A model generated the notes under the pieces. That model did not search any database and was not told the origin of the DNA. It saw only the letters and a program-made list of their open reading frames with translations. DNA of 28,173 bases from Candidatus Auribacterota bacterium. GTDB lineage: Bacteria; Auribacterota; UBA6266. The stretch is from assembly GCA_023136205.1 (NCBI GenBank), contig JAGLRQ010000077.1, forward strand, positions 1 to 28,173, in the 5' to 3' direction. Both the position numbers and the translations under genes were made by a program. Below, piece by piece: positions 690 to 17,120 of this stretch (its first letter is position 1; each line of letters begins with the position of its first letter).

Positions 690-779
690 TTTTTTCCTCG
701 TTTCTTTTGAAATTGTCTCTCATGTTTTTTATTCTTGAACACACAATGCTTAATATTTAAGGTATGATCCAATTCTCAT

Positions 780-2069: not shown

Positions 2070-2309
2070 AAGATATTTCCTCTGTAGTATATCATTCTAA
2101 GATTCTGTTTCACCCGCGTTGCTTAAGCGTAACATCAATATTTTATTGCCACAAGCGTTTATTCAACATCCTGCACGCCTATGCTTTGTGTCAGGTCGGG
2201 GTGAAAGCACTTGCGTAAAAAATGAATTTTTTTGCTTTTAATATATAAAAAGGGGTTACTTTTTTCTACTAAACACGTTATATAGATTGTATCTCAGTTT
2301 TTAGTAATC

Positions 2310-2567
2310 TTAACTGGGTTTTGGAAATTCATTTCGTAGTTCATTCCGTTTTTTTTCATCCATTTTCGAATCAACCCAGATACATTTCCAAGATATTTCT
2401 TCCCCAGACCATCCCGATCTTTGATAAATATTTTTTACCCACGTTTCGACAGTATCTTGCGGAGATTCAATCTTTTCGCCATCTACGTTTCCAAAAAACT
2501 TATGCGTCCCCTCAACCCATCCTCTAGAAGTAAGGTGGTATTCAATTTCAAGGTCATCAACAGCCAT
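2310..2567 (-). CDS. hypothetical small protein (85 aa)
   Basis: ATG at 2567 preceded by GGGGAGG 5 nt upstream. Trp-rich and acidic. No family recognised. Confidence 0.55.
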   Translation of the reverse strand: MAVDDLEIEYHLTSRGWVEGTHKFFGNVDGEKIESPQDTVETWVKNIYQRSGWSGEEISWKCIWVDSKMDEKKRNELRNEFPKPS

Positions 2568-2683
2568 GTCAACCTCCCCTATTATAAAAAATCTAACGAA
2601 AAATCAAATGACCGGAGCAAGCTCCATTTTGCAACGGCCCAATGTATGTTGCTATCAATTCAATGAAACCCATGTCTCATCTT

Positions 2684-2708
2684 GTAAAAGGGGTCAGACC
2701 CCTTTTAC
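2684..2708. other. perfect hairpin GTAAAAGGGGT-CAG-ACCCCTTTTAC overlapping the stop codon of the 2694-3449 gene
   Basis: 11-bp perfect stem with a 3-nt loop. The minus-strand TGA stop (2694-2696) lies in the loop, and a T-run follows on the + strand. The core GGGGTCA(G/A)ACCCCTTTT recurs at 4194-4214. Confidence 0.6.
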
Positions 2709-3449
2709 GATTTTTTCCGTTGCTTCTCTGACTGAGTATTCCCAAATTGAATTGTTGGTAAATGGTGACCTGCTTGGGTGTTGTGGCCACATCACGATTT
2801 TTCCATGACGATATTTCCAGACCCGGTACACCAATCTCTTCTTTTCATATCCTTCAAACTGTATTTCTTCATCTGGTTTATTAAAGTTAATATTCCAATG
2901 ACCTGAGCTTGAAATCCAGTTGTTCACCTCCCTGTCTTTCAGAATTGTATTCAAACCTAACAAAATAATGAATCTTGGCTTTAGATAATCGACAGTTACC
3001 ATGGGTATCCATTCGGCGTACTTTTTCTCAATCACTCTGACTGTTGCTACACCAAATAATCCAACTCCAAAATTGAGATTGCCTGATATTGACATACATT
3101 CTTCAATGCTTAGATCACCACTGTGTTTTCGAATAATTGATTGGTATAGGTGTCTTGCTTTGTTCCAGAATCTCTTTGTGTCTTCGTAGTAGATTTTTTC
3201 GTGAGGGATGCCGCAGGTTGGCGCAGAATATGCAAGTTTGTTCAATACTGTATCTGTTCGATTCGGCGAGTTTCCTGGTGACGGTCCTATTGTCAGCACA
3301 AATGGGTTCACCGATGTCGGCATGCCAAATGGCCAGGGTTCCATTGGAGATGTGTTTGAGATTTCGCCTATTACTCTTTTACGTTCAGATTCAGAAATCT
3401 GCCTTGCAGAATTCAAGCGATCCCTTGGTATGCTACTCCATAGACTCAT
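2694..3449 (-). CDS. uracil-DNA-glycosylase-superfamily-like protein (251 aa; by-eye assignment)
   Basis: Strong SD (GGGGAGGG, 6 nt before ATG 3449). Motif-A-like FVLTIGPSPGNSP (res ~50-62; compare GQDPY / GINPG / GMNPGP / GEAPG of UDG families). Motif-B-like WPQHPSRSPF (res ~221-230; compare HPSPLS / HPSPRN). Spacing is ~170 aa, as in SMUG-type enzymes. Confidence 0.45.
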   Translation of the reverse strand: MSLWSSIPRDRLNSARQISESERKRVIGEISNTSPMEPWPFGMPTSVNPFVLTIGPSPGNSPNRTDTVLNKLAYSAPTCGIPHEKIYYEDTKRFWNKARHLYQSIIRKHSGDLSIEECMSISGNLNFGVGLFGVATVRVIEKKYAEWIPMVTVDYLKPRFIILLGLNTILKDREVNNWISSSGHWNINFNKPDEEIQFEGYEKKRLVYRVWKYRHGKIVMWPQHPSRSPFTNNSIWEYSVREATEKIVKGV

Positions 3450-3492
3450 ATTAAACCCTCCCCATCAGTTGCCTAATGTGGCAATGAGATAT

Positions 3493-3531
3493 CGTAAAAG
3501 ACCGTGAGCAAAGCGAGCGCAGCTTTTCACG
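3493..3531 (-). terminator. possible intrinsic terminator after the 3551-4174 gene
   Basis: Two-part stem CGTGA..AAAGC / GCTTT..TCACG (3503-3531), followed on the minus strand by GTCTTTTAC. The loop shares AGCGAGCGCAGC with the GGGACAGTCC repeat family. Confidence 0.35.
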
Positions 3532-3550
3532 ATCACCTTCGATTGCCTTG

Positions 3551-4174
3551 TTATATTTCGCACTCTGACCAAGCAATACCACCTGAATTCTTCCGATTCA
3601 TTACAACTCCACTTACGTAAATTCTAACGTTGGTGGTTACTTCATGGTGATTATAGTTATTGTTTGCCACATGCACTACAGCAGTACCAGCTGAAAGATT
3701 TTCCAGCTTGGGACCTAGGTGATTCCACCTGCCTCTCATGGTGTGAGTGGGGTTTACGAGTATATCATATGGAAGATCCCGACCGGCTTTAACTAACCCA
3801 TTTTTTGCAAAGCCATCTATCTCACCGCAGATAGCGAATGAAATCATTCGATTACAGATTCTGTGTGTCCGCTCTGGCCAAATATCTTGCAACCGGTCCA
3901 GATTCCTTGCTGTTGGTTTAGTGGCAAATATCTGGTTCGGCATCTTGATCTTCTGCATCGGTGATACCAACCATGGAACTAACCTGCCTTTTCCCGAACC
4001 CGTCTCTACAAATGCCAATACCCCAGACTTCAACACTTTTGAAACACGTATGTAGCTTGGATGGTTCTTGGCATTTCCAGGCAAGACAACGAGGTCGTGA
4101 TCACAGTTACCTAAGAAATGAAGAATTTCCTTTGAGGTCGAAGATTCCAGCGGTGAAATAGCACATATTCTCAT
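3551..4174 (-). CDS. hypothetical protein with weak carbon-nitrogen hydrolase (nitrilase-superfamily)-like features (207 aa)
   Basis: MRICAIS..., DLVVLPG, FAICGEIDGF and DILVNPTH resemble the strand order and Cys motif (hhICyD/E) of CN hydrolases. The Glu of the usual PE motif is not evident (LPG). Confidence 0.35.
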   Translation of the reverse strand: MRICAISPLESSTSKEILHFLGNCDHDLVVLPGNAKNHPSYIRVSKVLKSGVLAFVETGSGKGRLVPWLVSPMQKIKMPNQIFATKPTARNLDRLQDIWPERTHRICNRMISFAICGEIDGFAKNGLVKAGRDLPYDILVNPTHTMRGRWNHLGPKLENLSAGTAVVHVANNNYNHHEVTTNVRIYVSGVVMNRKNSGGIAWSECEI

Positions 4175-4193
4175 AGTAAAGTCTCATTAGGGT

Positions 4194-4214
4194 AAATGGG
4201 GTCAAACCCCTTTT
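4194..4214. other. hairpin AAATGGGGT-CAA-ACCCCTTTT, related to the 2684-2708 hairpin
   Basis: 9-bp stem with one T:T mismatch. Lies 20-40 nt upstream (minus-strand sense) of ATG 4174, with a T-run on the + strand. Confidence 0.5.
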
Positions 4215-4288
4215 CTCTTTATACTCAATTTTTGTGGAAGCACTTACTCCGTATCGGGGTTAAGTAAATTATTATATTGGATATCAAG

Positions 4289-4335
4289 AAAATCCCGGGG
4301 ACACAAGAAAAAATCCCGGGAAAATCCCGGGGACA
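4289..4335 (+). repeat. three closely spaced direct repeats AAAATCCCGGGG(ACA)
   Basis: AAAATCCCGGGGACA at 4289-4303 and 4321-4335, with a shortened AAAAAATCCCGGG at ~4309-4320. Each contains the CCCGGG palindrome, and the last runs into a GGGACAG core. Confidence 0.6.
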
Positions 4336-4407
4336 GAACACTTAATTATTTTTTTGTTCGGGCACCTTATTTTTCCTTCTCAAATTTCCGGCAATTATTT
4401 TGTAGTA

Positions 4408-4433
4408 TTAATTAGAACTATCCCCTTTTTCAC
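4408..4433 (+). repeat. junction module TTAATTAGAACTATCCCCTTTTTCAC (second copy at 15764-15787)
   Basis: Near-identical 24-26-nt match to the sequence immediately 3' of the MFS gene. Confidence 0.6.
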
Positions 4434-4452
4434 ATAACTCATTTTATAAAAA

Positions 4453-4495
4453 CATCTTAACATAAATCCAGCTCTTCTCCATCTTCTAAAATCTT
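4453..4495 (+). repeat. junction module CATCTTAACATAAATCCAGCTCTTCTCCATCTTCTAAAATCTT
   Basis: Also at 14459-14505 and 20771-20813, and diverged at 17028-17062. On the minus strand it encodes the spurious MEKSWIYVKM prefix seen on several track ORFs. Confidence 0.7.
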
Positions 4496-4569
4496 AACAT
4501 TTTAAGGAAACATAACAACAGACATCTCTTTTACTAAATTTCACCAACCCCACACCCCCAACATTCCTT

Positions 4570-4598
4570 TTGACCTGCCGGCACAATTGTTTCATAAT
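4570..4598 (+). promoter_or_regulatory. sigma70-like promoter TTGACC-17nt-CATAAT
   Basis: TTGACC at 4570-4575, CATAAT at 4593-4598, ~38 nt upstream of ATG 4636. Confidence 0.4.
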
Positions 4599-4635
4599 AT
4601 GCAAAATTCGCATTGTTTCGGAGACACAAGCAAGA

Positions 4636-4991
4636 ATGAGAAAGACCGAAAAAATAAAATATGAAATTGACCCGCATAACAGGATTATATTCACAAAAAC
4701 AGGAAGAAAATCAAAGCTTCCCAAATACAGAGGGAATGGAAGGTAAATAAAAGATTAGGTGTCCTGTTTGAAATGCCGCATGAAAAAGGAATCCTTCAGA
4801 GAATTGTCTTTGGAGCAAGCTGCAAGCTGGGCAAAAGTAGCACTGTTGAGTTTAAACTGAGAAATAAACAGGGAAAAGACCTGGGAATAGACATTAAGTT
4901 TTCCAAGAAAACACTAAAAGAGCAGGGGGGAATTTTCTTTCGTGCTGTCACATCAAAAAAAGAGAAGCAATTTTTAATCGGTGGTGGATAG
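4636..4991 (+). pseudogene. internally deleted, frameshifted paralogue of the 14759-15739 repeat-protein gene
   Basis: From ATG 4636, MRKTEKIKYEIDPHNRIIFTKTGRKSKLPKYR matches YEIDPHNRLVFTKTGKKSKLPKFR, then a stop at 4744-4746. A different frame encodes EWKVNKRLGVLFEMPHEKG...KEKQFLIGGG (to 4991), matching the last ~85 residues of the full-length protein. About 0.64 kb of the middle is missing. Confidence 0.75.
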
Positions 4992-5122
4992 AGGTGGTAG
5001 GAAAGAATGGAGAGCAACTATTTTTCTAAAAAGGCAATGGGGCCAGGCTCCCTTCTCTAACCATCCCCACTCTGTGAAAATTACAATACCTTCCCGGTCT
5101 TAAAAATTGTATGCTAAGCTAA

Positions 5123-5150
5123 TTGGAAATATGTTAACCTGAATTAATAT
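5123..5150 (+). promoter_or_regulatory. possible sigma70-like promoter TTGGAA-16nt-TAATAT
   Basis: TTGGAA at 5123-5128, TAATAT at 5145-5150, 25 nt upstream of ATG 5176. SD AAGGTG lies 8 nt upstream of the ATG. Confidence 0.3.
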
Positions 5151-5175
5151 GTAAACGAATTAAAAGGTGACTTAA

Positions 5176-7200
5176 ATGCAAATTGCCAAGAAGTATAAAA
5201 TAGAAGTTAAGAAAGACCACCTTTCAAAAATCGCATCAGGTAGTCCGGAGTTTGCATTGGCCGAGTTGATTTGGAATGCGCTAGATGCAGATGCCAACAA
5301 CATTGAGGTTTGTTTTCATGAAGGACCATTAGGTGTGGATGAAATACTTATTCGAGATAACGGTACCGGCATTGCTTATGATGAAGCCGAAAATCTATTT
5401 GTTTCTCTTGGAGGTTCATGGAAAGCCCAACAACAGAAAACAAAAAAGGGGCGCTTCCTGCATGGGAAAGATGGTGAAGGACGGTTTAAGGCATTCATTT
5501 TAGGTAGGATAGTAGATTGGAATATCATCTATAAAAAAGATAGCCAATTTTTGAGATATACAATTGAAGAGTGTTCCGATTCACTAGATGAATTTAGTTT
5601 AAGCGCTGAGGAAGGAATCATTAATAAACAAACCGGCGTTGAGGTACATATTACTGAGTTAAATAAGAAATTTCATGTGTTGAACAAAGAAAAAGCTATT
5701 GAAAAACTAACCCCAATATTTGCCTTATACTTGAGCAATTATCCATCCGTCAAACTAAGTATTGATGGAACACCAATCAACCCAGATGAGGTCATCCTCC
5801 ACAAGAATAGTTTTTCCTTAGATACTATCAAGGAAGATGGCTCTTTACACCAAGTAGAACTCGAAGTCGTTGAATGGTGTGAAATTAAAGAACGAGAGCT
5901 CTGGTTCTGTAATGCACATGGATTTCCTTTAGAGGTTTATAGTAAACAGATCCGAGGCATTGGCGAATTTGGATTTAGCGGTTATATAAAATCAACGTAT
6001 ATCCAGCACCTTCATTCCCACGGTTTGTTAACATTAGGGGAGTTAAATAAAAATCTAAACCAAGCATGTGAACAAGCTGTTAAGAAAATCAAAGATTATT
6101 TCATAAAAAGAACCCTTGAAAGCGCTCGAGATCAGCTGGAAAAGTGGAAAGAAGAAAAAGTATATCCTTATGTAACTGAACCAGCAACACCTGTTGAGGT
6201 AGCTGAAAGACAAGTATTCGATATCATCGCTATCAACATTAATCAAAGCCTCCCGGATTTTGAGCAGACTGAGAAGAAAACGAAAGCATTTCAATTACGA
6301 ATGCTTCGGCAAGCCGTAGAAAAAAGTCCAGAGGAACTACAGATAATAATAGGCGAAGTTTTACAACTTCCTAAGAAAAAACAAGAACAACTAGCTGAAT
6401 TACTTAAGGATACATCTCTATCCGGGATAATAAGTGCATCTAAACTTGTTACCGATCGACTTAAGTTTCTCTCCGGACTTGAACACATGTTATTTGATAA
6501 AGACGTTAAGAAGCATTTTAAAGAAAGAACCCAATTACATCGCATATTAGCTGATAATACATGGGTTTTTGGACATGCGTTCTCCTTGTCCGTTGATGAT
6601 AAGTCTCTTACCGAAGTCCTTCGCAAGCATATCAATTTATCAGGAAATAATTTACTTGTTGATGCCCCAGTTAAACGGCTTGATGAAAGCATTGGTATTG
6701 TTGATCTTATGTTGTCTCGATCCATTCCAAGAAACCATTCTAATGAACTCGAACATCTTGTAGTTGAGCTGAAAGCTCCGCGTATTAAAATAGGGCAAAA
6801 AGAAATAGAACAAATTAAGAGTTACGCTTTTGCAGCGGCTGGGGACGAGCGGTTTCAAGGCCTAAAGACACGTTGGCATTTTTGGGTAATATCAAATGAC
6901 ATTGATAATTATGCTGAAATAGAGCTAAGTCAGGAGAAGTATGAGGATGGTATCATTTTTAAAACTACAAAAAATATTGACCTAACAATATGGGTTAAGA
7001 CATGGTCACAGCTATTACAAGAGAATAAACACAGACTGGAATTTATTAAAGAAAAGCTAAATTACAACATAGACCGTGAGGATGCCCTTGCATATCTAAA
7101 GAAAACATATGAGGAATATACTCAAGGTCTTATTTTTCCACAAAAAGATGGGCAGAGTGCAGTAAATATTGACAAACAAAAAGAGACAGAAAAGCTTTAG
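5176..7200 (+). CDS. GHKL-superfamily ATPase (MORC / HATPase_c_3-like) with a C-terminal PD-(D/E)xK-type nuclease-like domain (674 aa)
   Basis: N-box ELIWNALDADA, G1 box ILIRDNGTGI and G2-like GKDGEGRFKAF near the N-terminus. The C-terminal region has LHRILADNTWVFGH ... GIVDLMLSR ... EHLVVELKAPRIKIGQKEIEQIKSYA (D...E-x-K arrangement). Confidence 0.65.
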   Translation: MQIAKKYKIEVKKDHLSKIASGSPEFALAELIWNALDADANNIEVCFHEGPLGVDEILIRDNGTGIAYDEAENLFVSLGGSWKAQQQKTKKGRFLHGKDGEGRFKAFILGRIVDWNIIYKKDSQFLRYTIEECSDSLDEFSLSAEEGIINKQTGVEVHITELNKKFHVLNKEKAIEKLTPIFALYLSNYPSVKLSIDGTPINPDEVILHKNSFSLDTIKEDGSLHQVELEVVEWCEIKERELWFCNAHGFPLEVYSKQIRGIGEFGFSGYIKSTYIQHLHSHGLLTLGELNKNLNQACEQAVKKIKDYFIKRTLESARDQLEKWKEEKVYPYVTEPATPVEVAERQVFDIIAININQSLPDFEQTEKKTKAFQLRMLRQAVEKSPEELQIIIGEVLQLPKKKQEQLAELLKDTSLSGIISASKLVTDRLKFLSGLEHMLFDKDVKKHFKERTQLHRILADNTWVFGHAFSLSVDDKSLTEVLRKHINLSGNNLLVDAPVKRLDESIGIVDLMLSRSIPRNHSNELEHLVVELKAPRIKIGQKEIEQIKSYAFAAAGDERFQGLKTRWHFWVISNDIDNYAEIELSQEKYEDGIIFKTTKNIDLTIWVKTWSQLLQENKHRLEFIKEKLNYNIDREDALAYLKKTYEEYTQGLIFPQKDGQSAVNIDKQKETEKL

Positions 7201-7215
7201 AGACACAACACCCAA

Positions 7216-7416
7216 TCACCCAAAAACCCCCTCCCTAACATAAACCTCACAAACATTATCCCTCAGTCTTATCTTGCGGATTTGAGATTTTGGCATCCAG
7301 ATTTTCTCCACATTTTCAACTAAAACAGCTTTTTCAGTTTCATGCAAGATACGGATCTGAACCCAGACATATCCGGGTTTTGAATATAACAACCTGTAAA
7401 TGCTAAATGGCCACAT
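7216..7416 (-). CDS. hypothetical small protein (66 aa)
   Basis: ATG at 7416 preceded by AAAGGAG 8 nt upstream. Sequence ...HETEKAVLVENVEKIWMPKSQI... . No family assigned. Confidence 0.55.
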   Translation of the reverse strand: MWPFSIYRLLYSKPGYVWVQIRILHETEKAVLVENVEKIWMPKSQIRKIRLRDNVCEVYVREGVFG

Positions 7417-7435
7417 AATGTTGACTCCTTTCTAA

Positions 7436-7822
7436 GAAAAATGGGACAGTCCACGCGCTTGCTATGCTCGCTTGGGACAGTCCCTCTTTTTCTCTCTCCT
7501 ATTGAATAAGTACGCCTTTTTGGCGGTTTTGGGGTCTACGCTTAAGGATTTTGCCTATATCGGTATCCGACATGCCTAATAGATGTAATTCTGTGGCTTT
7601 TTGGGCTAACTTCTGGTATATATGAGGACACTCTACAGGTAGTATTTTGATATGGGCATGGATTTCAGCAATGGTTCGAATTGGTAGTGACCGGGTCCAC
7701 CATTCCGCCTTCGCTAGGAATTGGGTGTTTCATTCCAGAAGCTATGTCGGGCAAGTCCCCAAGAAAATGGGGAAAGTCCCAAGCGAACGCAGTGAGCGGG
7801 TGGACTGTCCCTTTTTTCTTTG
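7436..7822. mobile_element. MITE-like element: ~60-bp inverted copies of the GGGACAGTCC hairpin module flanking a degenerate HTH-encoding ORF
   Basis: The left arm (7436-7495) and the reverse complement of the right arm (7761-7822) are ~80% identical. The interior (7514-7683) is ~90% identical to 17425-17594. On the minus strand it encodes ...YQKLAQKATELHLLGMSDTDIGK... with a 1-nt indel relative to the other copy and no start codon. Confidence 0.45.
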
Positions 7823-7836
7823 TCGTCGAGAAATTT

Positions 7837-7890
7837 AATAGGTGTCTGTCCCTATTTTTTCCCCCTATTTTTTCCCTATTTTTTCCTACT
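7837..7890 (-). repeat. left boundary of the R-M cassette: 18-bp inverted-repeat arm plus CTATTTTTTC-type repeats
   Basis: 7837-7854 AATAGGTGTCTGTCCCTA is the exact reverse complement of 13122-13139 TAGGGACAGACACCTATT. It is followed by TTTTTTCCCCCTATTTTTTCCCTATTTTTTCC. Confidence 0.65.
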
Positions 7891-7998
7891 CATTATTATC
7901 TGGGATATTTAGACCATCAATCTCAAAAGATTCTTCACTTTTGAAAAGTCTAAAATTTTTGATTGTGATTTTTTTAATAAACATATTTTAAGTAAAAA

Positions 7999-9525
7999 TT
8001 ATACAATACTATATAAGGCTTCATTGCTTTCCAAATGCCCTAAAAATTCTTCAATTGTTTTTGGAGAGATGAAAAGATTATCCGTTTGCCTCACATAGTC
8101 AATTTGCTTTACAGAATCACTAAAAATACTTGGTGCAACAAAATAGCACATTGAATTTTTTGCTTTCTTTCCAAATTCTTCCAAATGCCTGCTAATAGGC
8201 CATACTTCCATCATCGTTTGTGTCCGCCCCTCGGACATTGTTACTTCAATCAAAATTCCGTTTACATCCTCAAAACACTCAATATCACCAGTATTGCCAA
8301 CACCTCCCGCTGTTGATGTAGGAATACCCTCATCATCAATAGGATAGTTTGGGATTACTTTCACATCTGGAAATTTTGATTTGACTGCTAATGCAGTCAA
8401 AAACTCAAGTCGTGTTGGATTAGAGAGATATTTTAAAGTCTCATCTTTACTTAATCGTTTATTTGATAAATTCAACATTTCTATTTTTATTTTATCCCAA
8501 GCATAAACACCCACCCACTTTGTTAAGAATTTATCTTGTTCCGAAACAGAAACTGCTTTTGGTACAAATGAAATAAGATTTTTATCAACTATTGAGATGT
8601 ACTCAAAATAACTTTCTTCCGTGTCGTATTTTTTGTATTCAGAATAATTTCCTAAAACATAATCAACTTTTTCTTGCTCGTTTTTGTTTATATCAATAAA
8701 TCGTCCACCACCACGCAAAGAAATAAGCCCAGTTAATCGCATTTTTCTGATAAACTCATCAGGGTAATCAACCAAAATAGACTTATCATCTCTAACGATG
8801 TCTTTACCCTCCATGATTTCATCTCTGCAAATTTCAGCTATGACTTCCCAACTTGGAGAATAGCCAAAATCTTGCCGAAGCTTCTTGATCCTTTGATACA
8901 ACTTTTTTGCATCGTTGTCTTTCCAATAAATTATTAAAGGTAATTCTAGTTTAGAAATTCCTGCATCATTACATTCATCATCTGCGTTGAGCTTAGTAAT
9001 TACTTGAAGCAATAAAACCAGTGGCACATTTTCATTTAAAACTCTGCGAAAAGGACTATTGCTCTGATATTTAACAAAAGCATTCAGGAATGCTTGTTGC
9101 TCAAATTCTGGATGTTCATTATCAACAAGCTTCAATCCTATTTCGGAAAATCGTATTTTCTCCCCCGATTTGTAAAAAACAAAACCTAACTCTTTGGCAA
9201 TTTTGAACCATGTATCAAAACGAGAAGGCCATCCCCAACTAAATCCTGCCTCTTTATGATTTTGTGGATTATCTTCTAAAACTTTGGAAACGTCTTTATC
9301 TGTCAAAGGCTCTTTTGTTTTGATTTTCTTTTTTACACTTATTGACAATCTTGTCGGTCTGTACAGTCCAATTCTAATTATTTCGCCTGCAATTTTTTCT
9401 GCTAATTCGTTATTAAGAATTTGCCCGTCATAATCTTTCAAGATGCCAAGAAACCACTTTAACCGCTCAGGATTTCTAAGTGTTGTGGTAAATAATAATG
9501 GCTTGTATTTTGATTTGTTAGGCAT
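7999..9525 (-). CDS. AlwI/BstNBI/MlyI/PleI-family type IIS restriction (or nicking) endonuclease (508 aa)
   Basis: N-terminal LLFTTTLRNPERLKWFLGILKDYDG resembles the family N-terminus. C-terminal PTSTAGGVGNTGDIECFEDVNGILIEVTMSEGRTQTMMEVWPISRH matches, from my memory of N.BstNBI, P.THAAGNQPDMEIIYEDFIVLGEVTTSKGATQFKMESEPVTRH. Confidence 0.8.
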   Translation of the reverse strand: MPNKSKYKPLLFTTTLRNPERLKWFLGILKDYDGQILNNELAEKIAGEIIRIGLYRPTRLSISVKKKIKTKEPLTDKDVSKVLEDNPQNHKEAGFSWGWPSRFDTWFKIAKELGFVFYKSGEKIRFSEIGLKLVDNEHPEFEQQAFLNAFVKYQSNSPFRRVLNENVPLVLLLQVITKLNADDECNDAGISKLELPLIIYWKDNDAKKLYQRIKKLRQDFGYSPSWEVIAEICRDEIMEGKDIVRDDKSILVDYPDEFIRKMRLTGLISLRGGGRFIDINKNEQEKVDYVLGNYSEYKKYDTEESYFEYISIVDKNLISFVPKAVSVSEQDKFLTKWVGVYAWDKIKIEMLNLSNKRLSKDETLKYLSNPTRLEFLTALAVKSKFPDVKVIPNYPIDDEGIPTSTAGGVGNTGDIECFEDVNGILIEVTMSEGRTQTMMEVWPISRHLEEFGKKAKNSMCYFVAPSIFSDSVKQIDYVRQTDNLFISPKTIEEFLGHLESNEALYSIV

Positions 9526-9529
9526 AATT

Positions 9530-10435
9530 TTAATAGTTAGTAATCAAAACTTCTTTGATTTTTTTCTTTCCGTTATTATGATAACTGATGTAATTACTTT
9601 TAATATTGTGGACTTTATATTTTTTCATCCACTTAATCAATAAGTCATTTTTACTTCCGTTGTAATGAGTTACATTTGACAAAGCAAATTTAACACCTTT
9701 TTTGTTTAATTCATCAATCAAATTAAGTAAATCTGTCTCTGCTTTCTCATTCCATAGTTTATTGTACTCACTTGAAGTAATAATATATGGCGGATCAATA
9801 TAAACAAAGTCATTCTTTGAGTATTCATTTTTCTCAAAGAACTTTCTAAAGTCCTTTATTGTAAATTTAATTTTTTTGTCTATGACAAAATCAAAATAGT
9901 TATTAAGTGCATTTACTACATTCTTATTGAAGTCAACATTCCCAACAGGTAAATTAAATTTACCGCCGCCATTGAATCGTAGCATTCTGTTAAAACCATA
10001 GATTAACAAAATGTATAAAATAAGAGGATCATTTTTTTTGTTTTTATTTACGCAAATTCGCAGTTTCTCATAGCCCTCTTTATTAAACCTTGCGTAATAA
10101 GTTTTTTTAAATTCTTTTTTGAGAGAATCTGGAACGATATCTTTTTTGTATGAGTGAGATAATTTATATTTATGAATAATTTTCTCAACATCTTCAAAAA
10201 AATTCTCTGGATTTTTTGCATTAGAAATCAAAAGCTTGTGTATGTTCACGAGATGTTTGTCTATGTCATTTAAAAAATACTTATTTGCTTTAATATTCAA
10301 AAATACCGTACCTCCTCCCGCAAATGGTTCGTAAAAACTATTTATTTCTTGCGGAAACAAATCTAAAAGTTGTCTCATTAGCCGATATTTATCCCCAACA
10401 TAAAAGAGGGGTGATCTTTTTATTTCTTTATTCAT
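9530..10435 (-). CDS. Dam-family (D12 class) N6-adenine DNA methyltransferase (301 aa)
   Basis: FYVGDKYRL...YEPFAGGGTVFLN (motif I), FVYIDPPY (motif IV) and ALSN, collinear with E. coli Dam. The start overlaps the upstream gene's stop (ATGA at 10432-10435). Confidence 0.9.
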   Translation of the reverse strand: MNKEIKRSPLFYVGDKYRLMRQLLDLFPQEINSFYEPFAGGGTVFLNIKANKYFLNDIDKHLVNIHKLLISNAKNPENFFEDVEKIIHKYKLSHSYKKDIVPDSLKKEFKKTYYARFNKEGYEKLRICVNKNKKNDPLILYILLIYGFNRMLRFNGGGKFNLPVGNVDFNKNVVNALNNYFDFVIDKKIKFTIKDFRKFFEKNEYSKNDFVYIDPPYIITSSEYNKLWNEKAETDLLNLIDELNKKGVKFALSNVTHYNGSKNDLLIKWMKKYKVHNIKSNYISYHNNGKKKIKEVLITNY

Positions 10436-12240
10436 GATTTTGTGTTTGTTACAAATAAGTATTCCTTGTGATTATTAAAATCAGTATTTCCAGCATTAAA
10501 ATGTCTATAATCTTTTTCAAAAACTTTTGTTTTTCCTTTCTTGCTTAAAATTTTCTTGATTTCTTCAAGTGTAATTTTATTTTTTGATGAATTACTTTTT
10601 GATTCATAAGTATTGTTATATGACACCACTAAGTAGTTTGCATTTATATCATTGACTAATTCCGCAAATCTATCTTTTGCACTTACTCGACAATAATCAC
10701 TCATGTTTTCTGGTTCTGGCTTCAACGCTACTCCGTGCAACTCTGGCTTATCCCACTTTGTAAGTGTTTCAAGCACATGATAAAACCTGCTGTATTGCCG
10801 TGAATTATAAGGCGGATCAATATAAACAATATCTGTCTGAATTTGTTTTGCGAACGAATTTGCGTCTTCTCTAAAAATTAACACCTCTTTGGCTTCAATG
10901 GGGTTTATTGGTCGCATAAAAAAGTTATCGTCAACAAATTCTTTTTTGAAATAGGCATCATAATGCCCAACAGTATTTGCAATTTTATCAATGGAATAAA
11001 GCAAAGATGAAATTAACATGCTATATTCTCGCTTAGTAAGATTTTCTCGGTTTTTTTCAATGTTCTCTCGGATAAATCCAATAATTTTTGCTGAATTTTT
11101 TGAGAAATATTTACCACCAAAATTTATTGAAAAATAGTTTTCATCCAAATCTTCTCCGTTGATATTATTATAGTCTCTTATAATAATATTAGTTTTTTCT
11201 TGGTTCCACTTACCATTGTCAAAAAATGCTTTATAAATGGCTTGATTTGAGTGTAGAAAATCATTCAAAATGATTTTGTCAAAATGTTTACTTGCTACAG
11301 CGGCAACAACTCCGGTTCCAGCAAAAATATCTGTAAATGATTTTCCCTCGCATTCTTTATCAAGAATAGAAAAAATCCACTCTATCAGTTTATGTTTATT
11401 GCCAATATATCTACGATTTTGTAATTGAAAATGATTTTTTTTTATTTGCGGAACATGAAAATAAGTTTCTTGAATTTTTTCTGCACTTATCTCATATGCT
11501 GGCTTTTCAATTTCTAGCAAGTCAAAAAGTGTTCCCTGTACTCCCTCTGCAACATAATCAAGATTTTTATTTTTATCTCCTAGTTCTTTAAAAAAACTAT
11601 AGTGCTTATTTCCTGCAACAATAATAAAATCAGTAATCTCTATTCCATTTATTTTTCCTGCATAAGAAATTCTATCTACAATACTTTTATCCTGCTTGCT
11701 AGGATTTGGATTTCCTGTTGGATGATTATGAACTAAAATAATTGAGGAAGCGTTCAGACGAAAAGCAGGTTCAAAAATTTCTCTTGGGTGAAAAAGAGTT
11801 TTATCTACAAGCCCCACACTAATAACCTCTTTTTTAATAAGAACATTTCTTGCATCCAAATATAAACAAACAAGATATTCTTTTTTCTTATCTCTCAAAT
11901 CATAGGTAAGCGATAGAACATCTTGAGATTTTTTTATTGTAATTTCACTTGATTGACCATCTTCATAAAACCTTTTGACTAAAGAAATTGCCGCTGCAAT
12001 TTGCAATGCTTTTGCTGGTCCAATTCCGTCAACGGTCTGCAAATCTTTGACTGTTACATCCAAAAAAGTTTTGCTAAATTTATTAATAATTTGTTGTGCA
12101 AGTTTTTGAACATTTTTTCCTTTTATTCCGCTTCCAAGAACAATTGCCAAAAGATCACTTTTTGAAAGTGCTTGTGGACCTTTTTTGAGAAATTTTTCTC
12201 GCGGTCTATCAACTTTTGGAATATCTTTAATCTTTGTCAT
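10432..12240 (-). CDS. fusion protein: N-terminal RadC-like JAB/MPN domain + C-terminal D12-class N6-adenine DNA methyltransferase (602 aa)
   Basis: Res ~1-220: DRPREKFL, LLAIVLGSG, VDGIGPAKALQI (HhH), HPREIF, LVHNHPTGNPNPSKQD (RadC JAB motif). Res ~270-602: RRYIGNKHKL, DIFAGTGVV (motif I), IVYIDPPYNSRQY (motif IV), VVSYNN. This is a single uninterrupted ORF. Confidence 0.85.
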   Translation of the reverse strand: MTKIKDIPKVDRPREKFLKKGPQALSKSDLLAIVLGSGIKGKNVQKLAQQIINKFSKTFLDVTVKDLQTVDGIGPAKALQIAAAISLVKRFYEDGQSSEITIKKSQDVLSLTYDLRDKKKEYLVCLYLDARNVLIKKEVISVGLVDKTLFHPREIFEPAFRLNASSIILVHNHPTGNPNPSKQDKSIVDRISYAGKINGIEITDFIIVAGNKHYSFFKELGDKNKNLDYVAEGVQGTLFDLLEIEKPAYEISAEKIQETYFHVPQIKKNHFQLQNRRYIGNKHKLIEWIFSILDKECEGKSFTDIFAGTGVVAAVASKHFDKIILNDFLHSNQAIYKAFFDNGKWNQEKTNIIIRDYNNINGEDLDENYFSINFGGKYFSKNSAKIIGFIRENIEKNRENLTKREYSMLISSLLYSIDKIANTVGHYDAYFKKEFVDDNFFMRPINPIEAKEVLIFREDANSFAKQIQTDIVYIDPPYNSRQYSRFYHVLETLTKWDKPELHGVALKPEPENMSDYCRVSAKDRFAELVNDINANYLVVSYNNTYESKSNSSKNKITLEEIKKILSKKGKTKVFEKDYRHFNAGNTDFNNHKEYLFVTNTKS

Positions 12241-12242
12241 AG

Positions 12243-13091
12243 TTATTTTTTATAAATTGCTTCAAGCGTTTTTTTATCTTTTGTTTTCCATTTCTGCCAT
12301 CCACTTGTGGAGTTTCCTAAAATAATATCCGAAGCCGCACTCGGACTGTTAAAAACATAATCTTTTATAAAAATATACAGATTTTCATCTTTTTTTTCTA
12401 AATAACCATTAGAGATTAGTTTATCAACACTTTTCTTGTTCCTTTCTGCAACAGCATTAGAAAATTGAGTTGTAGCCGTTGAATCTTTATACACAACAAA
12501 CCCCTCGTTTATCATTCGTCCAGTTGCTAATGCTTTCTTTCCTCCACAGGTAAACAACGGATTTGAAGTGTCAGTTTGTTCCTTTGATGTAATTTCTTGC
12601 AGAATTGTATATCCAACGGTTGTAAGTAATAATTTTAAATTGTTTAAAAATTCTTCCATTTCAGCAATATCTGCTTCAGACAGAGAGGGTAAGAATGATT
12701 TTGTGCTATTTTCTAAATCAAACCTTTTTACTTGTGAGGCTATTTCTATACATCGACTTTCAAGATATTTAACATGGGCTTTTGTTAAATTGTTGTCTTT
12801 ACTGACAAATGCTATTGCGGTGCGCCAAAAATCTTTTGAACTGTCATGAGTAGTTAATCTATTGCCCAAATTTTCAGCTTCTCCAATATATGCAGTAGAT
12901 AGTAGGGCCTCTTCATTTTCTTTTCCAATCAAAAAATACACTGCTGGTTTGTTGCAATCAGATCGTTGTTTAATATCTTTGAGTTTATTTCTAGGAATAA
13001 CAATTGCTTGGCCAACCCAATTACTTAATTCTGCGGTTTTCAATCCGTTTGGTTCTCCATCAACTAAAAATATTTTTATTGTTTTTGCCAT
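12243..13091 (-). CDS. GIY-YIG nuclease family protein with DUF4357-like C-terminal domain (282 aa)
   Basis: PAVYFLIG...TAYIGEAENLGNRLTTH (GIY...YIG...R...H). C-terminal FVVYKDSTAT...FNSPSAASDIILGNSTSGWQKWK is typical of DUF4357. The stop lies 2 nt before the RadC::MTase start codon. Confidence 0.75.
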   Translation of the reverse strand: MAKTIKIFLVDGEPNGLKTAELSNWVGQAIVIPRNKLKDIKQRSDCNKPAVYFLIGKENEEALLSTAYIGEAENLGNRLTTHDSSKDFWRTAIAFVSKDNNLTKAHVKYLESRCIEIASQVKRFDLENSTKSFLPSLSEADIAEMEEFLNNLKLLLTTVGYTILQEITSKEQTDTSNPLFTCGGKKALATGRMINEGFVVYKDSTATTQFSNAVAERNKKSVDKLISNGYLEKKDENLYIFIKDYVFNSPSAASDIILGNSTSGWQKWKTKDKKTLEAIYKK

Positions 13092-13121
13092 AATTATTTT
13101 TCGTAGGGAATTAGCGGGAAT

Positions 13122-13139
13122 TAGGGACAGACACCTATT
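13122..13139 (+). repeat. right boundary of the R-M cassette: 18-bp inverted-repeat arm TAGGGACAGACACCTATT
   Basis: Exact reverse complement of 7837-7854. Preceded by GGGAATTAG x2. Confidence 0.7.
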
Positions 13140-13141
13140 TC

Positions 13142-13261
13142 CTATTCGCTTCCCTCATCTTTTTCTTCCAAAAACTTATCTTCTTTAATTTTCTTACTTA
13201 CTTTCTCAGCTATTGAATCTGTTGCATCTTCAACAATATCATTCACTGGTTCGAATAACCA
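13142..13261 (-). pseudogene. 3' fragment (39 codons + stop) of a paralogue of the small acidic protein gene at 14273-14434
   Basis: The minus strand reads WLFEPVNDIVEDATDSIAEKVSKKIKEDKFLEEKDEGSE*, versus WLFEPVNDIIEDATDSIAEKVSKKIKEDKLLEEEDEGNE* in the intact copy. There is no start codon, and the fragment abuts the stop of the 13266-14153 gene. Confidence 0.65.
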
Positions 13262-13265
13262 TATC

Positions 13266-14153
13266 TTAGCTCACATAGTCATAAGCTTGTTTTATCAAGC
13301 GCATTGCATAATCCAGCTGGTCAGCAGAATTAATTTTAAAAACCCTGTTTAATTTACCATAACCATATGTTGCAGGTACCGCCTTAGTCAAATTCTGAGA
13401 GTCATCAATTTTTTTATCACCCATTTTAATGAAAATCTTCAAGCCATCCTTTTGTATGTTCGGGCTTACAAAAGTAGAAGTAGTCCTATAATCACAATAC
13501 CATATGCCAACCTTTTCCCAAACATCATCAGAAATTGCCAATATTCTCTCACGCAATTTTTCGAATAAGTCTCTTATTTGTGGCGTAGCCTTGTTCAAAA
13601 GCCCATCCAATGTGTATTCCTTAAGTTTCCTGCCTTTTACAGGCTCTACACCTTCTTTGGTAGCCCGTTTTTGCCTGACAACATTTACATCCTCAACATT
13701 AAACAAGTCACCATAAAAGGAATATTTCTTCAACTCAACAGAAGGAATCATCTGATTAATAGCAGACAACTCCTTTCCATTAAAACTCTTCGCCACAATA
13801 ATGAGCCTCGGTTCAACACCCCAGTTCACTTCAAGCTTGCCCTTAAATTTTTCTTTCACAATAAGATTAATAGTCCGCTTATTTTGCTTAACCCAATTCA
13901 GATAAAAAAGCCCCTGGATTATAGCACTCGAATCCTTAATCCACTTGTACTCAATAACAACAGGCACATTATCTTCATCTATGCCTAAAGTATCTATCCG
14001 GCCATTAGGAATAGGATACTGCCTCTCAAGGAGCTTAATACCAGTCAAATCTTCAAGATTATTCTCCATAAGCTTCTCAAGTTCAGCCTCATACCTAAAC
14101 TCGCGACTATTAACCTTCTCAACCTTACTATCTTTCAATCTGAACAAAGGCAT
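13266..14153 (-). CDS. NucS/DUF91-like PD-(D/E)xK nuclease domain protein with DUF5655-like C-terminal domain (295 aa)
   Basis: NGRIDTLGIDEDNVPVVIEYKW (D...E-x-K) within the N-terminal ~130 aa. The C-terminal WYCDYRTTSTFVS...GLKIFIKMG...INSADQLDYAMRLIKQAYD resembles DUF5655. SD GGGGGTG lies upstream of ATG 14153. Confidence 0.6.
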   Translation of the reverse strand: MPLFRLKDSKVEKVNSREFRYEAELEKLMENNLEDLTGIKLLERQYPIPNGRIDTLGIDEDNVPVVIEYKWIKDSSAIIQGLFYLNWVKQNKRTINLIVKEKFKGKLEVNWGVEPRLIIVAKSFNGKELSAINQMIPSVELKKYSFYGDLFNVEDVNVVRQKRATKEGVEPVKGRKLKEYTLDGLLNKATPQIRDLFEKLRERILAISDDVWEKVGIWYCDYRTTSTFVSPNIQKDGLKIFIKMGDKKIDDSQNLTKAVPATYGYGKLNRVFKINSADQLDYAMRLIKQAYDYVS

Positions 14154-14272
14154 TTCTCACACCCCCTAAATTATATTATTCCTGTTTTCAAAAGAACCAT
14201 CTTTAAATATTGGACCCAGTGTTCCATCAGCATCATAACTAATTTAACTAATTAGTGATAGACACCTATTCC

Positions 14273-14434
14273 CTATTCGTTCCCCTCATCTTCTTCTTCC
14301 AGCAACTTGTCTTCCTTGATTTTCTTACTTACTTTCTCAGCTATCGAGTCGGTTGCATCTTCAATAATATCATTCACCGGTTCAAACAACCAAGTGAAGA
14401 ATCGTTCTATGAGTCCAGGTTTTTTATTGTTCAT
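14273..14434 (-). CDS. small acidic hypothetical protein (53 aa from ATG 14434)
   Basis: MNNKKPGLIERFFTWLFEPVNDIIEDATDSIAEKVSKKIKEDKLLEEEDEGNE, with SD-like GAGGAAGGTG upstream of ATG 14434. The longer track ORF (to 14488) begins inside the repeat module. Confidence 0.5.
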   Translation of the reverse strand: MNNKKPGLIERFFTWLFEPVNDIIEDATDSIAEKVSKKIKEDKLLEEEDEGNE

Positions 14435-14458
14435 AATACATAACACCTTCCTCAAAAA

Positions 14459-14580
14459 CATCTTAACATAAATCCAGCTCTTCTCCATCTTCTAAAATCT
14501 TCGAAGAAAAAAGGGACAGTCCACCCGCTCGCTGCGCTCGCTTGGGACTTTCCCCATTTTCTTCATCCCCCCCCTCCCCG
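14459..14580 (+). repeat. composite intergenic repeat: CATCTTAACATAAATCC module + GGGACAGTCC hairpin module + C-rich tract
   Basis: Nearly identical to 20771-20886. GGGACAGTCC (14513-14522) can pair with GGACTTTCCC (14545-14554), giving 10 bp with one mismatch. Confidence 0.75.
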
Positions 14581-14609
14581 TTGTAATCACTTTTCTTTCA
14601 TGTTAGAAT
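14581..14609 (+). promoter_or_regulatory. sigma70-like promoter TTGTAA-17nt-TAGAAT
   Basis: TTGTAA at 14581-14586, TAGAAT at 14604-14609. The identical arrangement occurs at 20887-20915. Confidence 0.5.
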
Positions 14610-14628
14610 GTTTAAACAAAAGAAGTAA

Positions 14629-14750
14629 GGGGGACTTCCCCCTAGATTTTACAAATCTGGCCAGGGGGACTAGAGAATCCCCCTAGATTTTTCAAATCTG
14701 GCCAGGGGGACTGGATCCCCCCAGATTTTGCAAATCTAGCAGGGGGGACT
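14629..14750 (+). promoter_or_regulatory. three tandem palindromic leader units (GGGGGACT...CCCCC-T-AGATTT-N3-AAATCT-GGCCA-GGGGG)
   Basis: G5-6 tracts start at 14629, 14664, 14705 and 14742 (period 35-41 nt). Each unit is an interrupted inverted repeat. The last G-tract ends 11 nt before GTG 14759. Confidence 0.5.
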
Positions 14751-14758
14751 AGAAGAGA

Positions 14759-15739
14759 GTGTACGAAATTGATCCGCATAACAGGCTTGTTTTCACAAAA
14801 ACAGGAAAAAAATCAAAACTTCCTAAATTCAGAGAAATTATTGATGGCAGAATTAAAATAGATAAAAATAATTCTTTTATCTACCATGTAAAGCAACCCC
14901 AAGCTTCCAATATCCCCCAACAGATTAAACTTTCGGGTAAATGGTCTTTAAATAAGAACCATGACCTTGTGCTTACCTTAGATAAGAAGCATAAGATGTA
15001 TGCCAGAGATAAGCTTACAATAAAGGGTGAGATAAAAGACGCGAAAGCAAATAAGCTGGTGTTTTCTGTTGCCGCAAAAAGCGGTTCAAATCAATACCGG
15101 GGATATATTTTAAACCTTAGCGGTAGCTGGCAGGCTGATAAGTATAACCGCCTGACGTTCAACGTAAAAAGGAATAAAGGTGCAACAGATATATTAACTT
15201 TTAAGGGCGGTTGGAGTATTAATAAAAAGAACCAGATTATTTATACTTATGAAAAAGCACATTTAAAAACTAAGAAAAAGATAACAAAAACCATAATACT
15301 TAAAGGGCATTGGGATATAACAGAAAAACGCAGGATTTTATACGTTTTAAATAAAAAAATAGATTCGCAATTTGATTTTAAAGTAAGCTTGGGAAAACCG
15401 CTTAAAAGAGGGCTTCAATATAAAATAGGGATAGGAAGTGTTCCTTCTAGGGAAAAGATAACTCTTTTGGGGGAATGGAAAGTAAATAAAAAATTAGGGG
15501 TCTTGTTTGAAATGCCGTATGAAAAAGGTAAACTCAAAAGGATTATTTTTGGAGCAAGCTGTAAGCTGGGCAAAAACGGCACCGTTGAGTTTAAACTGAA
15601 AAACAAACGAGGGCAAGACCTGGGAATGGATATTAAGCTTTCCAGGAAAATACTTAAAGATCAGGGTGAAATTTTCTTGCGTGCTATCACATCAAAAAAA
15701 GAGAAACAATTTTTAATTGGTGGTGGGTGGCGGTGGTAG
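14759..15739 (+). CDS. hypothetical beta-rich repeat protein (326 aa)
   Basis: GTG start. Internal ~40-50-aa repeats carry the signature L.G.W.(L/I)NK.N.L.(F/L) (KLSGKWSLNKNHDLVL, LSGSWQADKYNRLTF, FKGGWSINKKNQIIY, LKGHWDITEKRRILY, LLGEWKVNKKLGVLF). A deleted paralogue lies at 4636-4991. Confidence 0.65.
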   Translation: MYEIDPHNRLVFTKTGKKSKLPKFREIIDGRIKIDKNNSFIYHVKQPQASNIPQQIKLSGKWSLNKNHDLVLTLDKKHKMYARDKLTIKGEIKDAKANKLVFSVAAKSGSNQYRGYILNLSGSWQADKYNRLTFNVKRNKGATDILTFKGGWSINKKNQIIYTYEKAHLKTKKKITKTIILKGHWDITEKRRILYVLNKKIDSQFDFKVSLGKPLKRGLQYKIGIGSVPSREKITLLGEWKVNKKLGVLFEMPYEKGKLKRIIFGASCKLGKNGTVEFKLKNKRGQDLGMDIKLSRKILKDQGEIFLRAITSKKEKQFLIGGGWRW

Positions 15740-17027: not shown

Positions 17028-17120
17028 GTTAACATAAATCAAGCATTTCTCCATCTTCTAAGAAAAAAGGGACAGTCCACCCGCTCGCTGCGCTCGCTTG
17101 GGACTTTCCCCATTTTCTTC
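17028..17120 (+). repeat. diverged CATCTTAACATAAATC module + GGGACAGTCC hairpin module
   Basis: GTTAACATAAATCAAGCATTTCTCCATCTTCTAAG, then GGGACAGTCC (17069-17078) ... GGACTTTCCC (17101-17110). Confidence 0.7.

Follow-up and report, generated by a model that had tools for sequence, protein, structure and literature searches.

An AlwI-family restriction-modification block of foreign origin, probably set between two solo copies of a host TIR repeat, in an Omnitrophota genome

The window analysed here, a single contig of 28,173 nt from an Omnitrophota genome, carries in a defence island four adjacent genes that were clearly imported from other bacteria. They comprise an AlwI-family restriction-modification (R-M) set and a PDC-S14 gene, and they are enclosed by a perfect inverted repeat of 18 bp. 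The initial annotation had regarded this arrangement as a non-autonomous cassette bounded by its own inverted repeats. We are confident, if not certain, of a different reading: the block was acquired horizontally, and the two repeats are solo host copies of a TIR and not the termini of the block. Judged by sequence likeness, the repeat is the TIR of an IS200-like Y1 (HUH) tyrosine transposase of the TIRYT or 'TIRtron' type (Di Nocera 2013).

All four open reading frames lie on the minus strand (7999-9525, 9530-10435, 10432-12240 and 12243-13091) and are separated by 4, -4 and 2 nt, which confirms the tightly packed operon described at the outset; in this order, Pfam assigned them to RE_AlwI, MethyltransfD12, RadC plus MethyltransfD12, and DUF4357, the last with GIY-YIG as a weak second match. 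The first encodes an AlwI-family type II (IIS-like) restriction endonuclease of 508 aa (Pfam PF09491, 6.9e-43; PADLOC REase_II, 3.4e-125), whose C-terminal catalytic region can be aligned to BspD6I. Two methyltransferases of the D12 class (PF02086) are encoded in the R-M operon. One is a Dam-family N6-adenine DNA methyltransferase of 301 aa (9530-10435) that also exceeds the cut-off of TIGR00571; the other is an N6-adenine methyltransferase of 602 aa (10432-12240) with a fused RadC (JAB) domain, as indicated by Pfam, NCBIfam and PADLOC. The assignment to an AlwI-family type IIS-like set with two Dam-family methyltransferases thus agrees with the Pfam and PADLOC predictions, and each methyltransferase probably serves one strand of an asymmetric site. 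Neither GGATC nor GAGTC stood out in a test of k-mer avoidance. The fourth gene (12243-13091) codes for a GIY-YIG-like/DUF4357 protein of 282 aa that corresponds to PADLOC PDC-S14 (DUF4357, 5.5e-20; PDC-S14, 1e-104); its GIY-YIG match (0.0019) stays under the Pfam cut-off. As noted initially, no transposase or integrase gene is present inside the block.

For the AlwI-family endonuclease, over 120 protein clusters with 75-90% identity are spread over several phyla. Altogether, the low-GC R-M block shows exceptional promiscuity: Omnitrophota, Desulfobacteraceae, Brocadiaceae and Patescibacteria share its protein at 75-90% identity, and neither a mobility gene nor a terminal repeat accompanies it.

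The interior of the block (7855-13121) has a GC content of 30.95%, versus 39.3% (sd 2.1) in 5.3-kb windows of the genome (z -3.9), and thereby falls into the lowest 0.3% of windows; by tetranucleotide distance it ranks among the top 0.2%. The AT-rich, foreign character of the interior, first noticed from two 60-nt lines that indeed contain 13 and 29 G+C, is therefore borne out by the windowed GC and k-mer analysis. Less can be made of the absence of Shine-Dalgarno sequences. When GGAG, GAGG or AGGA at positions -20 to -4 was scored, none of the four starts carried the motif (0/4), and the neighbouring genes quoted for comparison did carry one, exactly as described. However, this is not distinctive: the motif precedes 37% of the long ATG ORFs of the genome (n = 1055; background 13.6%) and, because only about this share carries it, four starts without it are not significant (p ~0.16).

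The inverted repeat is perfect, as first reported: 13122-13139 on the minus strand is the exact reverse complement (18/18) of 7837-7854 on the plus strand (AATAGGTGTCTGTCCCTA). The repeat search in the window extended the pair to 21 nt at 95%, and perfect inverted pairs of 18 bp are expected by chance at ~0.006 in 28 kb. Sequence and genome repeat search identified both copies as members of a dispersed family. In the 1.76-Mb genome the 18-mer occurs 5 times exactly, 8 times with at most one and 11 times with at most two mismatches; the reversed 18-mer, searched as a control, gave 0 matches. Two exact copies, on contig C91 at 266-283 (minus) and 998-1015 (plus), flank a transposase gene (C91:279-959) that encodes a protein of 226 aa. 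This protein matches Pfam Y1_Tnp (PF01797, 9.7e-15) over the cut-off, and the motifs NHVH, FQ and YIERNP read in it match the table for subclass 2.1 (PMC6006769). The same TIR-flanked arrangement is present in a related genome (G004), and in seven loci fetched from other phyla a transposase of 37-44% identity lies between 18-mers of '-+' polarity that are ~700 nt apart. Across many phyla the 18-mer hardly varies (at least 17/18), although the transposases are only ~40% identical. Another nineteen '-+' pairs, spaced by under 150 nt, fold into perfect hairpins; doublets elsewhere, with their A5 and T5 flanks, resemble bidirectional terminators, and they account for most of the 30 copies (at most two mismatches) in another genome, G024. 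Several transposase paralogues are encoded in the present genome, each with its own TIR. The motif given for TIRs, GGGGWSAS (Di Nocera et al. 2013, PMC3733652), is matched at 7/8 positions by the core AGGGACAG, at 8/8 by that of the paralogue on C93 (GGGGACAG) and at 7/8 by that on C110 (GGGGACGC). A variant copy (AATAGTCGCTGTCCCTA) opens the window itself (1-17, plus strand) and has behind it a tail of T-rich ...CTA iterations that reaches ~85; the same variant occurs on contigs C137 and C114.

Where the imported DNA ends was apparent from eight homologous loci (L055-L062), which align with 74-88% nucleotide identity from 13100 or 12257 down to 7951-8035. Their blocks keep 29-36% GC versus 35-59% in their flanks, and the trio of endonuclease and two methyltransferases is kept in 8/8. 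The RadC-methyltransferase fusion is found in L056-L062, and the methyltransferase of L055 lacks RadC. The PDC-S14 candidate defence gene is separable: it is present in L058, L059 and L062 and absent from L055, L056, L057, L060 and L061 (5/8) as well as from a strain variant, L189. Neither the 18-mer nor any other significant terminal repeat was found in the eight homologous blocks. Homology to other R-M loci starts at 13100, which places it 22 nt inward of the right repeat; for the left repeat the distance is 50 to 97 nt. Between the repeats and the imported DNA lie short iterated ...CTA units, on the left as about three units of CCCTATTTTTT (7855-7885, plus strand), which form the junction, and on the right, in operon sense, as CCCTA ATTCCCGCTA ATTCCCTA CG (13101-13121, minus strand); no more than 22-31 nt thus separate the imported DNA from the ends of the repeats. 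The controller HTH gene of the related loci has been lost here, and an AAA_15-type ATPase gene, intact behind the AlwI gene in L060 and L061, is cut to 32 codons at the repeat tail (7886-7984, minus strand; MFIKKITIKNFRLFKSEESFEIDGLNIPDNNE and a stop). The repeats may have helped to form the junctions, since the ends abut the tails more closely than random intergenic placement suggests.

The co-occurring strain variant L189 shows two differences from positions 1-11681 of the window, the left TIR included. This stretch is followed by a recombination tract (11682-12257, minus strand) in which the two are 11% diverged; beyond 12257 L189 is unrelated to the window and has kept the HTH (controller) gene. 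A right TIR was not found in its remaining 460 nt up to the contig end. The block is carried by 7/7 population assemblies.

We propose that the block would have arrived as a longer unit, with controller, in some cases PDC-S14, two methyltransferases, endonuclease and ATPase, and that recombination beside the repeats would have trimmed and partly replaced this unit. Transcription of the operon would now start in host sequence upstream and end at 7761-7820, directly outside the left TIR copy. At this position is a 60-nt hairpin repeat (module B, no strand assigned) with the core AGGGACAG, a folding energy of -13.4 kcal/mol (z -3.9) and 12-17 copies in the genome; it is likely the terminator of the R-M operon.

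It is tempting to go one step further and to see in the TIRs, acted upon by the Y1 transposase or by illegitimate recombination, the very places where foreign defence DNA is joined, trimmed or exchanged. We consider this improbable, although it is the better of the alternatives. Both imported ends stop at iterated TIR tails, as described above. A start-less 3' fragment of a small acidic-protein gene (module A; 13145-13261, minus strand) is a direct repeat, 87% identical, of 14250-14392, where a third TIR copy with two mismatches (14253-14270, minus strand) follows the intact small acidic ORF and precedes a NucS-like PDC-S18 gene; the NucS-like gene is thereby bracketed by 143-bp direct repeats ending in a TIR. 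The 'small acidic ORF + TIR' module precedes defence genes in 4/5 of its copies in the genome, and directly downstream of it are four different systems: a type I R-M system, a methyltransferase/helicase system, PDC-S18, and PDC-S14 with the present R-M genes. In G004 adjacent genes even take their TAG stop codon from the TIR, and the E. coli TnpA-REP is cited in PMC6006769 as cleaving and rejoining REP DNA. Being nearly invariant across many phyla, the 18-mer could be a portable joining site for distant donors and recipients. However, in relatives housekeeping genes adjoin the repeats as often as defence genes do, and in G004 inward-facing TIR pairs bracket housekeeping transporters too. The GC content on the tail side is not generally foreign, conservation that stops at the repeat is expected for the terminal piece of any duplicated module, and the polymorphic right end seen in L189 involves ordinary homologous recombination inside the RadC-methyltransferase gene.

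Less probable still, and largely refuted, is the cassette as originally conceived, in which the 18-bp repeats are the TIRs of a non-autonomous unit (7837-13139) mobilised whole by a transposase acting in trans. It would account for the perfect 18/18 match and the compositionally foreign interior, a transposase predicted to recognise the repeat is encoded elsewhere in the genome, and transposon-like R-M units flanked by inverted repeats have been documented (PMC2853133). Yet the 18-mer search of the source genome, one outcome of which had been named beforehand as refuting the model, returned a dispersed repeat with 11 copies, shared by many phyla; because it is scattered in this way and tied to a transposase gene of its own, the 18-mer is not the end of a mobile cassette. 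Its polarity is also wrong. The outermost sequence around the R-M block is AATAGG..., whereas in functional TIR units TAGGGACAG... is outermost; all transposase-flanking and doublet units have the polarity opposite to that of the pair at the block, and the block-type polarity ('+-') occurred five times, never closer than 150 nt. No target-site duplication was found outside the 18-mers, the flanks ...AGAAATTT and TCCTATTC... having nothing in common. The block is single-copy in the genome; the proposed search for empty sites gave no DNA match to it in five family genomes, in which the whole island is variable, and the population assemblies all carry it. Finally, homologous blocks elsewhere travel without the repeats, genes are cut at both inner edges, and L189 has the left repeat but not the right one.

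Least probable of all is that the repeats are regulatory or structural elements of the operon (operator, insulator or terminator) whose positions were selected: the first start codon of the operon, which has lost its controller gene, follows the right copy at a distance of 30 nt, and doublets elsewhere are terminator-like, but a single 18-nt copy folds weakly (-2.3 kcal/mol; 10/200 shuffles as good), a promoter scan reached shuffle level only, the repeat is also found in unrelated contexts, and L189 retains the controller gene with no right copy in its available sequence.

The reading that we prefer, a horizontally acquired block between two solo host TIR copies, carries a caution: a perfect inverted repeat around foreign-looking genes can be just two copies of a host repeat. 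Such cases are decided by the copy number of the repeat, by its polarity, by whether the target is duplicated and by whether the cargo takes the repeat along. The TIRYT repeat, nearly invariant next to transposases of ~40% identity, would also be a good substrate for the TIRYT biochemistry that is still missing.

Like the transposon-like R-M units of Furuta, Abe & Kobayashi (2010, PMC2853133), the block is an R-M set with no linked mobility gene and with an inverted repeat on its flanks. In that study, however, high-copy repeats were removed first. Its convincing cases had inverted repeats found nowhere outside the unit, a target duplication of 8 bp and an empty site; here the repeat is dispersed, a target duplication was not found, and five family genomes and seven population assemblies yielded no empty site. 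With the AlwI-family type IIS systems (AlwI, MlyI/PleI, N.BstNBI, BspD6I) the block shares the PF09491 endonuclease and the two N6-adenine methyltransferases expected for an asymmetric site, but it departs from them in the RadC/JAB domain at the N-terminus of one methyltransferase, in the loss of the controller gene and in the PDC-S14 gene that stands ahead of the operon.

The repeat family recalls the REP/REPIN-RAYT systems of Proteobacteria (Nunvar 2010; Bertels & Rainey 2011, PMC3116915), with short dispersed extragenic repeats, hairpin-forming inverted doublets and a low-copy Y1 transposase gene with repeats on its flanks. Unlike these, it has no GTAG or CGTC tag, a single unit is barely palindromic, and there are ~10 copies here rather than hundreds. 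A classical REP/RAYT element (REPtron) was rejected on the missing tag, the weak fold and the score of REP_Tyr_transpos, the best NCBIfam model for the C91 protein, which at 55.6 bits remains under the 80-bit cut-off. The closest likeness is to the TIRtrons with their TIR-associated tyrosine transposases (TIRYT), probably the same as TnpA-Y1 subclass 2.1 (Quentin et al. 2018, PMC6006769) and RAYT group 1 (Bertels et al. 2017, PMC5581495). The present family differs from the surveyed TIRtrons in its host phylum, Omnitrophota, which is outside those surveys, in the near-invariance of the 18-mer across phyla despite ~40%-identical transposases, and in the short tandem iterations at the TIR ends in this AT-rich genome. 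Common to both are a Y1/HUH transposase of ~226 aa with NHVH, FQ and YIERNP, inverted TIRs that flank its gene, one of them overlapping the 3' end, and a moderately abundant TIR family of singles and dimers, with paralogues that each have a TIR of their own.

The 28-kb contig very probably carries a horizontally acquired, ordinary R-M plus PDC-S14 block with a solo copy of a host TIRYT repeat on either side. The source assembly (G000; 1.76 Mb, 166 contigs, 39.4% GC), of which the window is contig C142, falls in Omnitrophota according to the Omnitrophota MAGs among the 18-mer matches (see below). As proposed in the initial annotation, four packed minus-strand ORFs with spacings of 4, −4 and 2 nt are found between the repeats; profile matches identify the product of 7999-9525 as an AlwI-family endonuclease, that of 9530-10435 as a Dam-family methyltransferase, that of 10432-12240 as a fusion of RadC and a D12 methyltransferase, and that of 12243-13091 as a DUF4357 protein that also matches GIY-YIG weakly. 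PADLOC placed the last of these in PDC-S14, a candidate single-gene defence family (1e-104), and a PDB sequence search with it gave no meaningful match. The AT-rich, foreign composition claimed for the interior was indeed found: its GC content of 30.95%, compared to 39.3 ± 2.1% in 5.3-kb windows of the genome, is among the lowest 0.3% (z −3.9), and in tetranucleotide distance to the genome it ranks within the top 0.2%. The absence of a Shine-Dalgarno sequence holds literally, as the core motif precedes none of the four starts but is present at the neighbouring genes quoted for comparison. It is not a distinctive trait, since only 37% of 1055 long ATG ORFs of the genome have the motif (background 13.6%; canonical core used in place of the 16S 3' end, which is absent from the assembly) and four genes without it have a chance of p ~0.16. 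The A-rich leaders are thus compatible with a foreign origin, yet not discriminating. A sigma-70 promoter scan of 7300-14800 gave 26 sites, which is the level of shuffled sequences (28 ± 5). With regard to specificity, k-mer counts revealed no depletion of GGATC and only a weak one of GAGTC.

The sequence at 7837-7854 (AATAGGTGTCTGTCCCTA) is, as annotated, the exact reverse complement of 13122-13139; the match grows to 21 nt at 95% identity, and chance alone would give about 0.006 perfect 18-bp inverted pairs per 28 kb. However, the 18-mer is a dispersed repeat and not the boundary of a cassette. The source genome has 5 exact copies, 8 at ≤1 mismatch and 11 at ≤2 mismatches, and no copy of the reversed 18-mer used as control. 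The window itself has a third copy at 14253-14270 and a variant at 1-17, on the contig edge. In contig C91 of the same genome, exact 18-mers at 266-283 (−) and 998-1015 (+) lie on either side of a 226-aa ORF encoding an IS200-like Y1 transposase (Pfam PF01797, 1e-14), an arrangement shared with the complete related genome G004. The best NCBIfam model for this protein, REP_Tyr_transpos, scored 55.6 bits, below its cut-off of 80, and a PDB sequence search gave no match. Altogether, the genome has three intact and one truncated Y1 transposase paralogues (C110, C93, C91, C150), and the two further intact ones each have their own flanking inverted repeat with a GGGGAC(AG) core. With position 9 free, the 18-mer was found in at least 119 stretches among species-representative genomes, in phyla including Planctomycetota, Omnitrophota, Hydrogenedentota, Acidobacteriota, Nitrospirota, Elusimicrobiota, Verrucomicrobiota and others. 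The repeat AATAGGTGNCTGTCCCTA is at least 17/18 identical across genomes that carry the labels of more than 10 phyla and range from 32% to 71% in GC content (L063-L142; G024, G016, G002-G005), whereas the Y1 transposases flanked by it are only 37-44% identical; such conservation is unusually strong for a REP/TIR-type repeat.

Relatives of the endonuclease form more than 120 protein clusters with 75-90% identity, with Desulfobacteraceae, Brocadiaceae, Taylorbacteria and other Patescibacteria among the sources. In all of the eight contigs encoding such endonucleases that we fetched for comparison, the trio of [RadC-]D12 methyltransferase, D12 methyltransferase and AlwI endonuclease is present; three also have the DUF4357 gene with an HTH_3 controller-type gene ahead of it. 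What follows the endonuclease gene differs (AAA_15 ATPase, DUF6119, others). The blocks are 74-88% identical to the window at the DNA level, and the match starts at 13100 in the four-gene form or at 12257 in the three-gene form and ends in both at 7951-8035. Their GC content is 29-36% compared to 35-59% in the host flanks, and neither the 18-mer nor any significant terminal direct or inverted repeat was found in the eight blocks. Therefore, the block is foreign in every host and moves without visible mobility genes, and the inverted repeat is not brought along. A DNA search of five family genomes gave no match to the R-M block; only the repeats and the gene family of 14759-15739 matched. Elsewhere the block sits amid housekeeping genes of unrelated hosts, for example right after lipoamide dehydrogenase (L057) or GlnRS (L056), and no mobility gene is present at these loci (L055-L062; endonuclease protein set P0001-P0120). 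GATC is rare across the host genome (6280 observed vs 11809 expected, z −51) and in the R-M blocks of seven loci (100 vs 210), and CCWGG is absent from the seven blocks (0 vs about 20), which suggests avoidance of common restriction sites by a promiscuous R-M block.

Over the R-M region, the window is matched at 99.9-100% identity by seven contigs of other metagenome assemblies within a single sample series; two further population contigs end short of the block. One contig, L189 (ERZ23498528 scaffold_2705), has only two differences to window positions 1-11681, left repeat and ATPase remnant (see below) included, is 11% diverged over 11682-12257 and unrelated beyond. Here, an HTH controller gene is directly upstream of the RadC-methyltransferase gene, and the remaining 460 nt contain neither a DUF4357 gene nor an 18-mer. 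Therefore, the right part of the window is a recombinant replacement with one crossover in the RadC-methyltransferase gene, and the two repeats were not brought in jointly with the cargo. Two haplotypes, L185 and L189, were assembled from one sample: one has, like the window, a TIR ahead of PDC-S14, the other the HTH controller gene.

At the right junction, homology ends 9 nt 5' of the first ATG; of the HTH gene found ahead of DUF4357 at other loci, only the final few bases are left, followed by a 21-nt iterated tail (CCCTA ATTCCCGCTA ATTCCCTA CG) and the 18-mer. At the left junction, 32 codons of an AAA_15 ATPase gene remain behind the endonuclease gene (7886-7984), and the stop codon of this remnant is the first unit of the tail TAGG AAAAAA TAGGG AAAAAA TAGGGGG AAAAAA TAGGGACAG. 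At its outer end, nearly every TIR copy of the genome continues into a unit of 6-12 nt, iterated 2-4 times in tandem, which repeats the last bases of the TIR and ends in CTA, such as CCCTATTTTTT x3, CCC(G)CTAATT x2.5 or TATATGC x2 (window 7855-7885, 13101-13121 and 18-85; C91:225-265 and 1016-1040; C150, 3' of the truncated transposase). Genome G024, which is GC-rich, has similar iterations on the inner side. They may arise by slippage or by repeated transposase cleavage and rejoining. Outside the right repeat, a gene for a small acidic protein is represented by a 3' fragment that lacks a start and repeats 14250-14392 in direct orientation; outside the left one is a 60-nt hairpin repeat (7761-7820; also 7434-7493, 14504-14563, 17060-17119 and 20811-20870), which has the AGGGACAG core in common with the TIRs and resembles a doublet from a related TIR family.

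Could the repeats or their transposase actively form the junctions of imported DNA? The imported DNA halts at repeat tails on both ends, and a module of the 3' end of the small acidic-protein gene (ending in KKIKEDKLLEEEDEGSE and a stop) plus TIR is directly upstream of defence genes in four of five copies in the genome (type I R-M, MTase/helicase system, PDC-S18, PDC-S14+R-M; C128:15600, C150:22720, C102:22099, window 13139 and 14270). Defence genes may use this module as a portable leader or landing pad. However, the repeats of G004 adjoin housekeeping genes, and the tail side, tested at every TIR copy, is not low in GC or foreign except at the R-M cassette. In G004, the terminal CTA of the TIR gives the TAG stop of a CNNM/CBS transporter and a PLD-like protein gene (L036:4253-4270 with ORF 4268-5500; L037:5740-5757 with ORF 4591-5742), so the repeats abut coding sequence exactly. 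Altogether, the two ends and the module leave a slim chance for such an active role.

The acquired block between solo host repeats has also to be distinguished from the non-autonomous mobile cassette of the initial annotation, which we abandon. Compared to the transposon-like R-M units for which Furuta et al. 2010 (PMC2853133) gave criteria, the repeats here occur outside the unit as well, a target duplication is missing outside the two repeats, and no empty site was found by DNA search of the family genomes. In addition, the polarity is wrong. Among 80 loci fetched from the 18-mer scan of species-representative genomes, 19 adjacent '-+' doublets are less than 150 nt apart and fold to perfect hairpins (−21 to −37 kcal/mol), and each of seven '-+' pairs ~700 nt apart encloses a Y1 transposase that shares 37-44% identity with the C91 protein. 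The '+-' polarity seen around the cassette, with AATAGG outermost, occurred in only five cases, none closer than 150 nt. Tn7/Mu-like ends (TGT...ACA plus internal binding repeats) are ruled out, because the doublets and transposase-containing units put the inside at the AATAGG side. An integron-like/attC array is dismissed, since the transposase-associated family accounts for the repeats and gene orientations are mixed.

Di Nocera et al. 2013 (PMC3733652) described RAYT-like genes with flanking TIRs, named TIRtrons or TIRYT; many of these TIRs share GGGGWSAS, and some are moderately abundant repeat families present as singles and dimers. Quentin et al. 2018 (PMC6006769) suggested that TIRYT are probably subclass 2.1 (NHVH; FQ; YIELNP; about 238 aa). 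In the C91 protein, which is 226 aa long, the motifs read NHVH, FQ and YIERNP; the core of its TIR is AGGGACAG, to be compared with GGGGWSAS. The 18-mer and the C91 transposase thus match the published description of TIRtrons/TIRYT.
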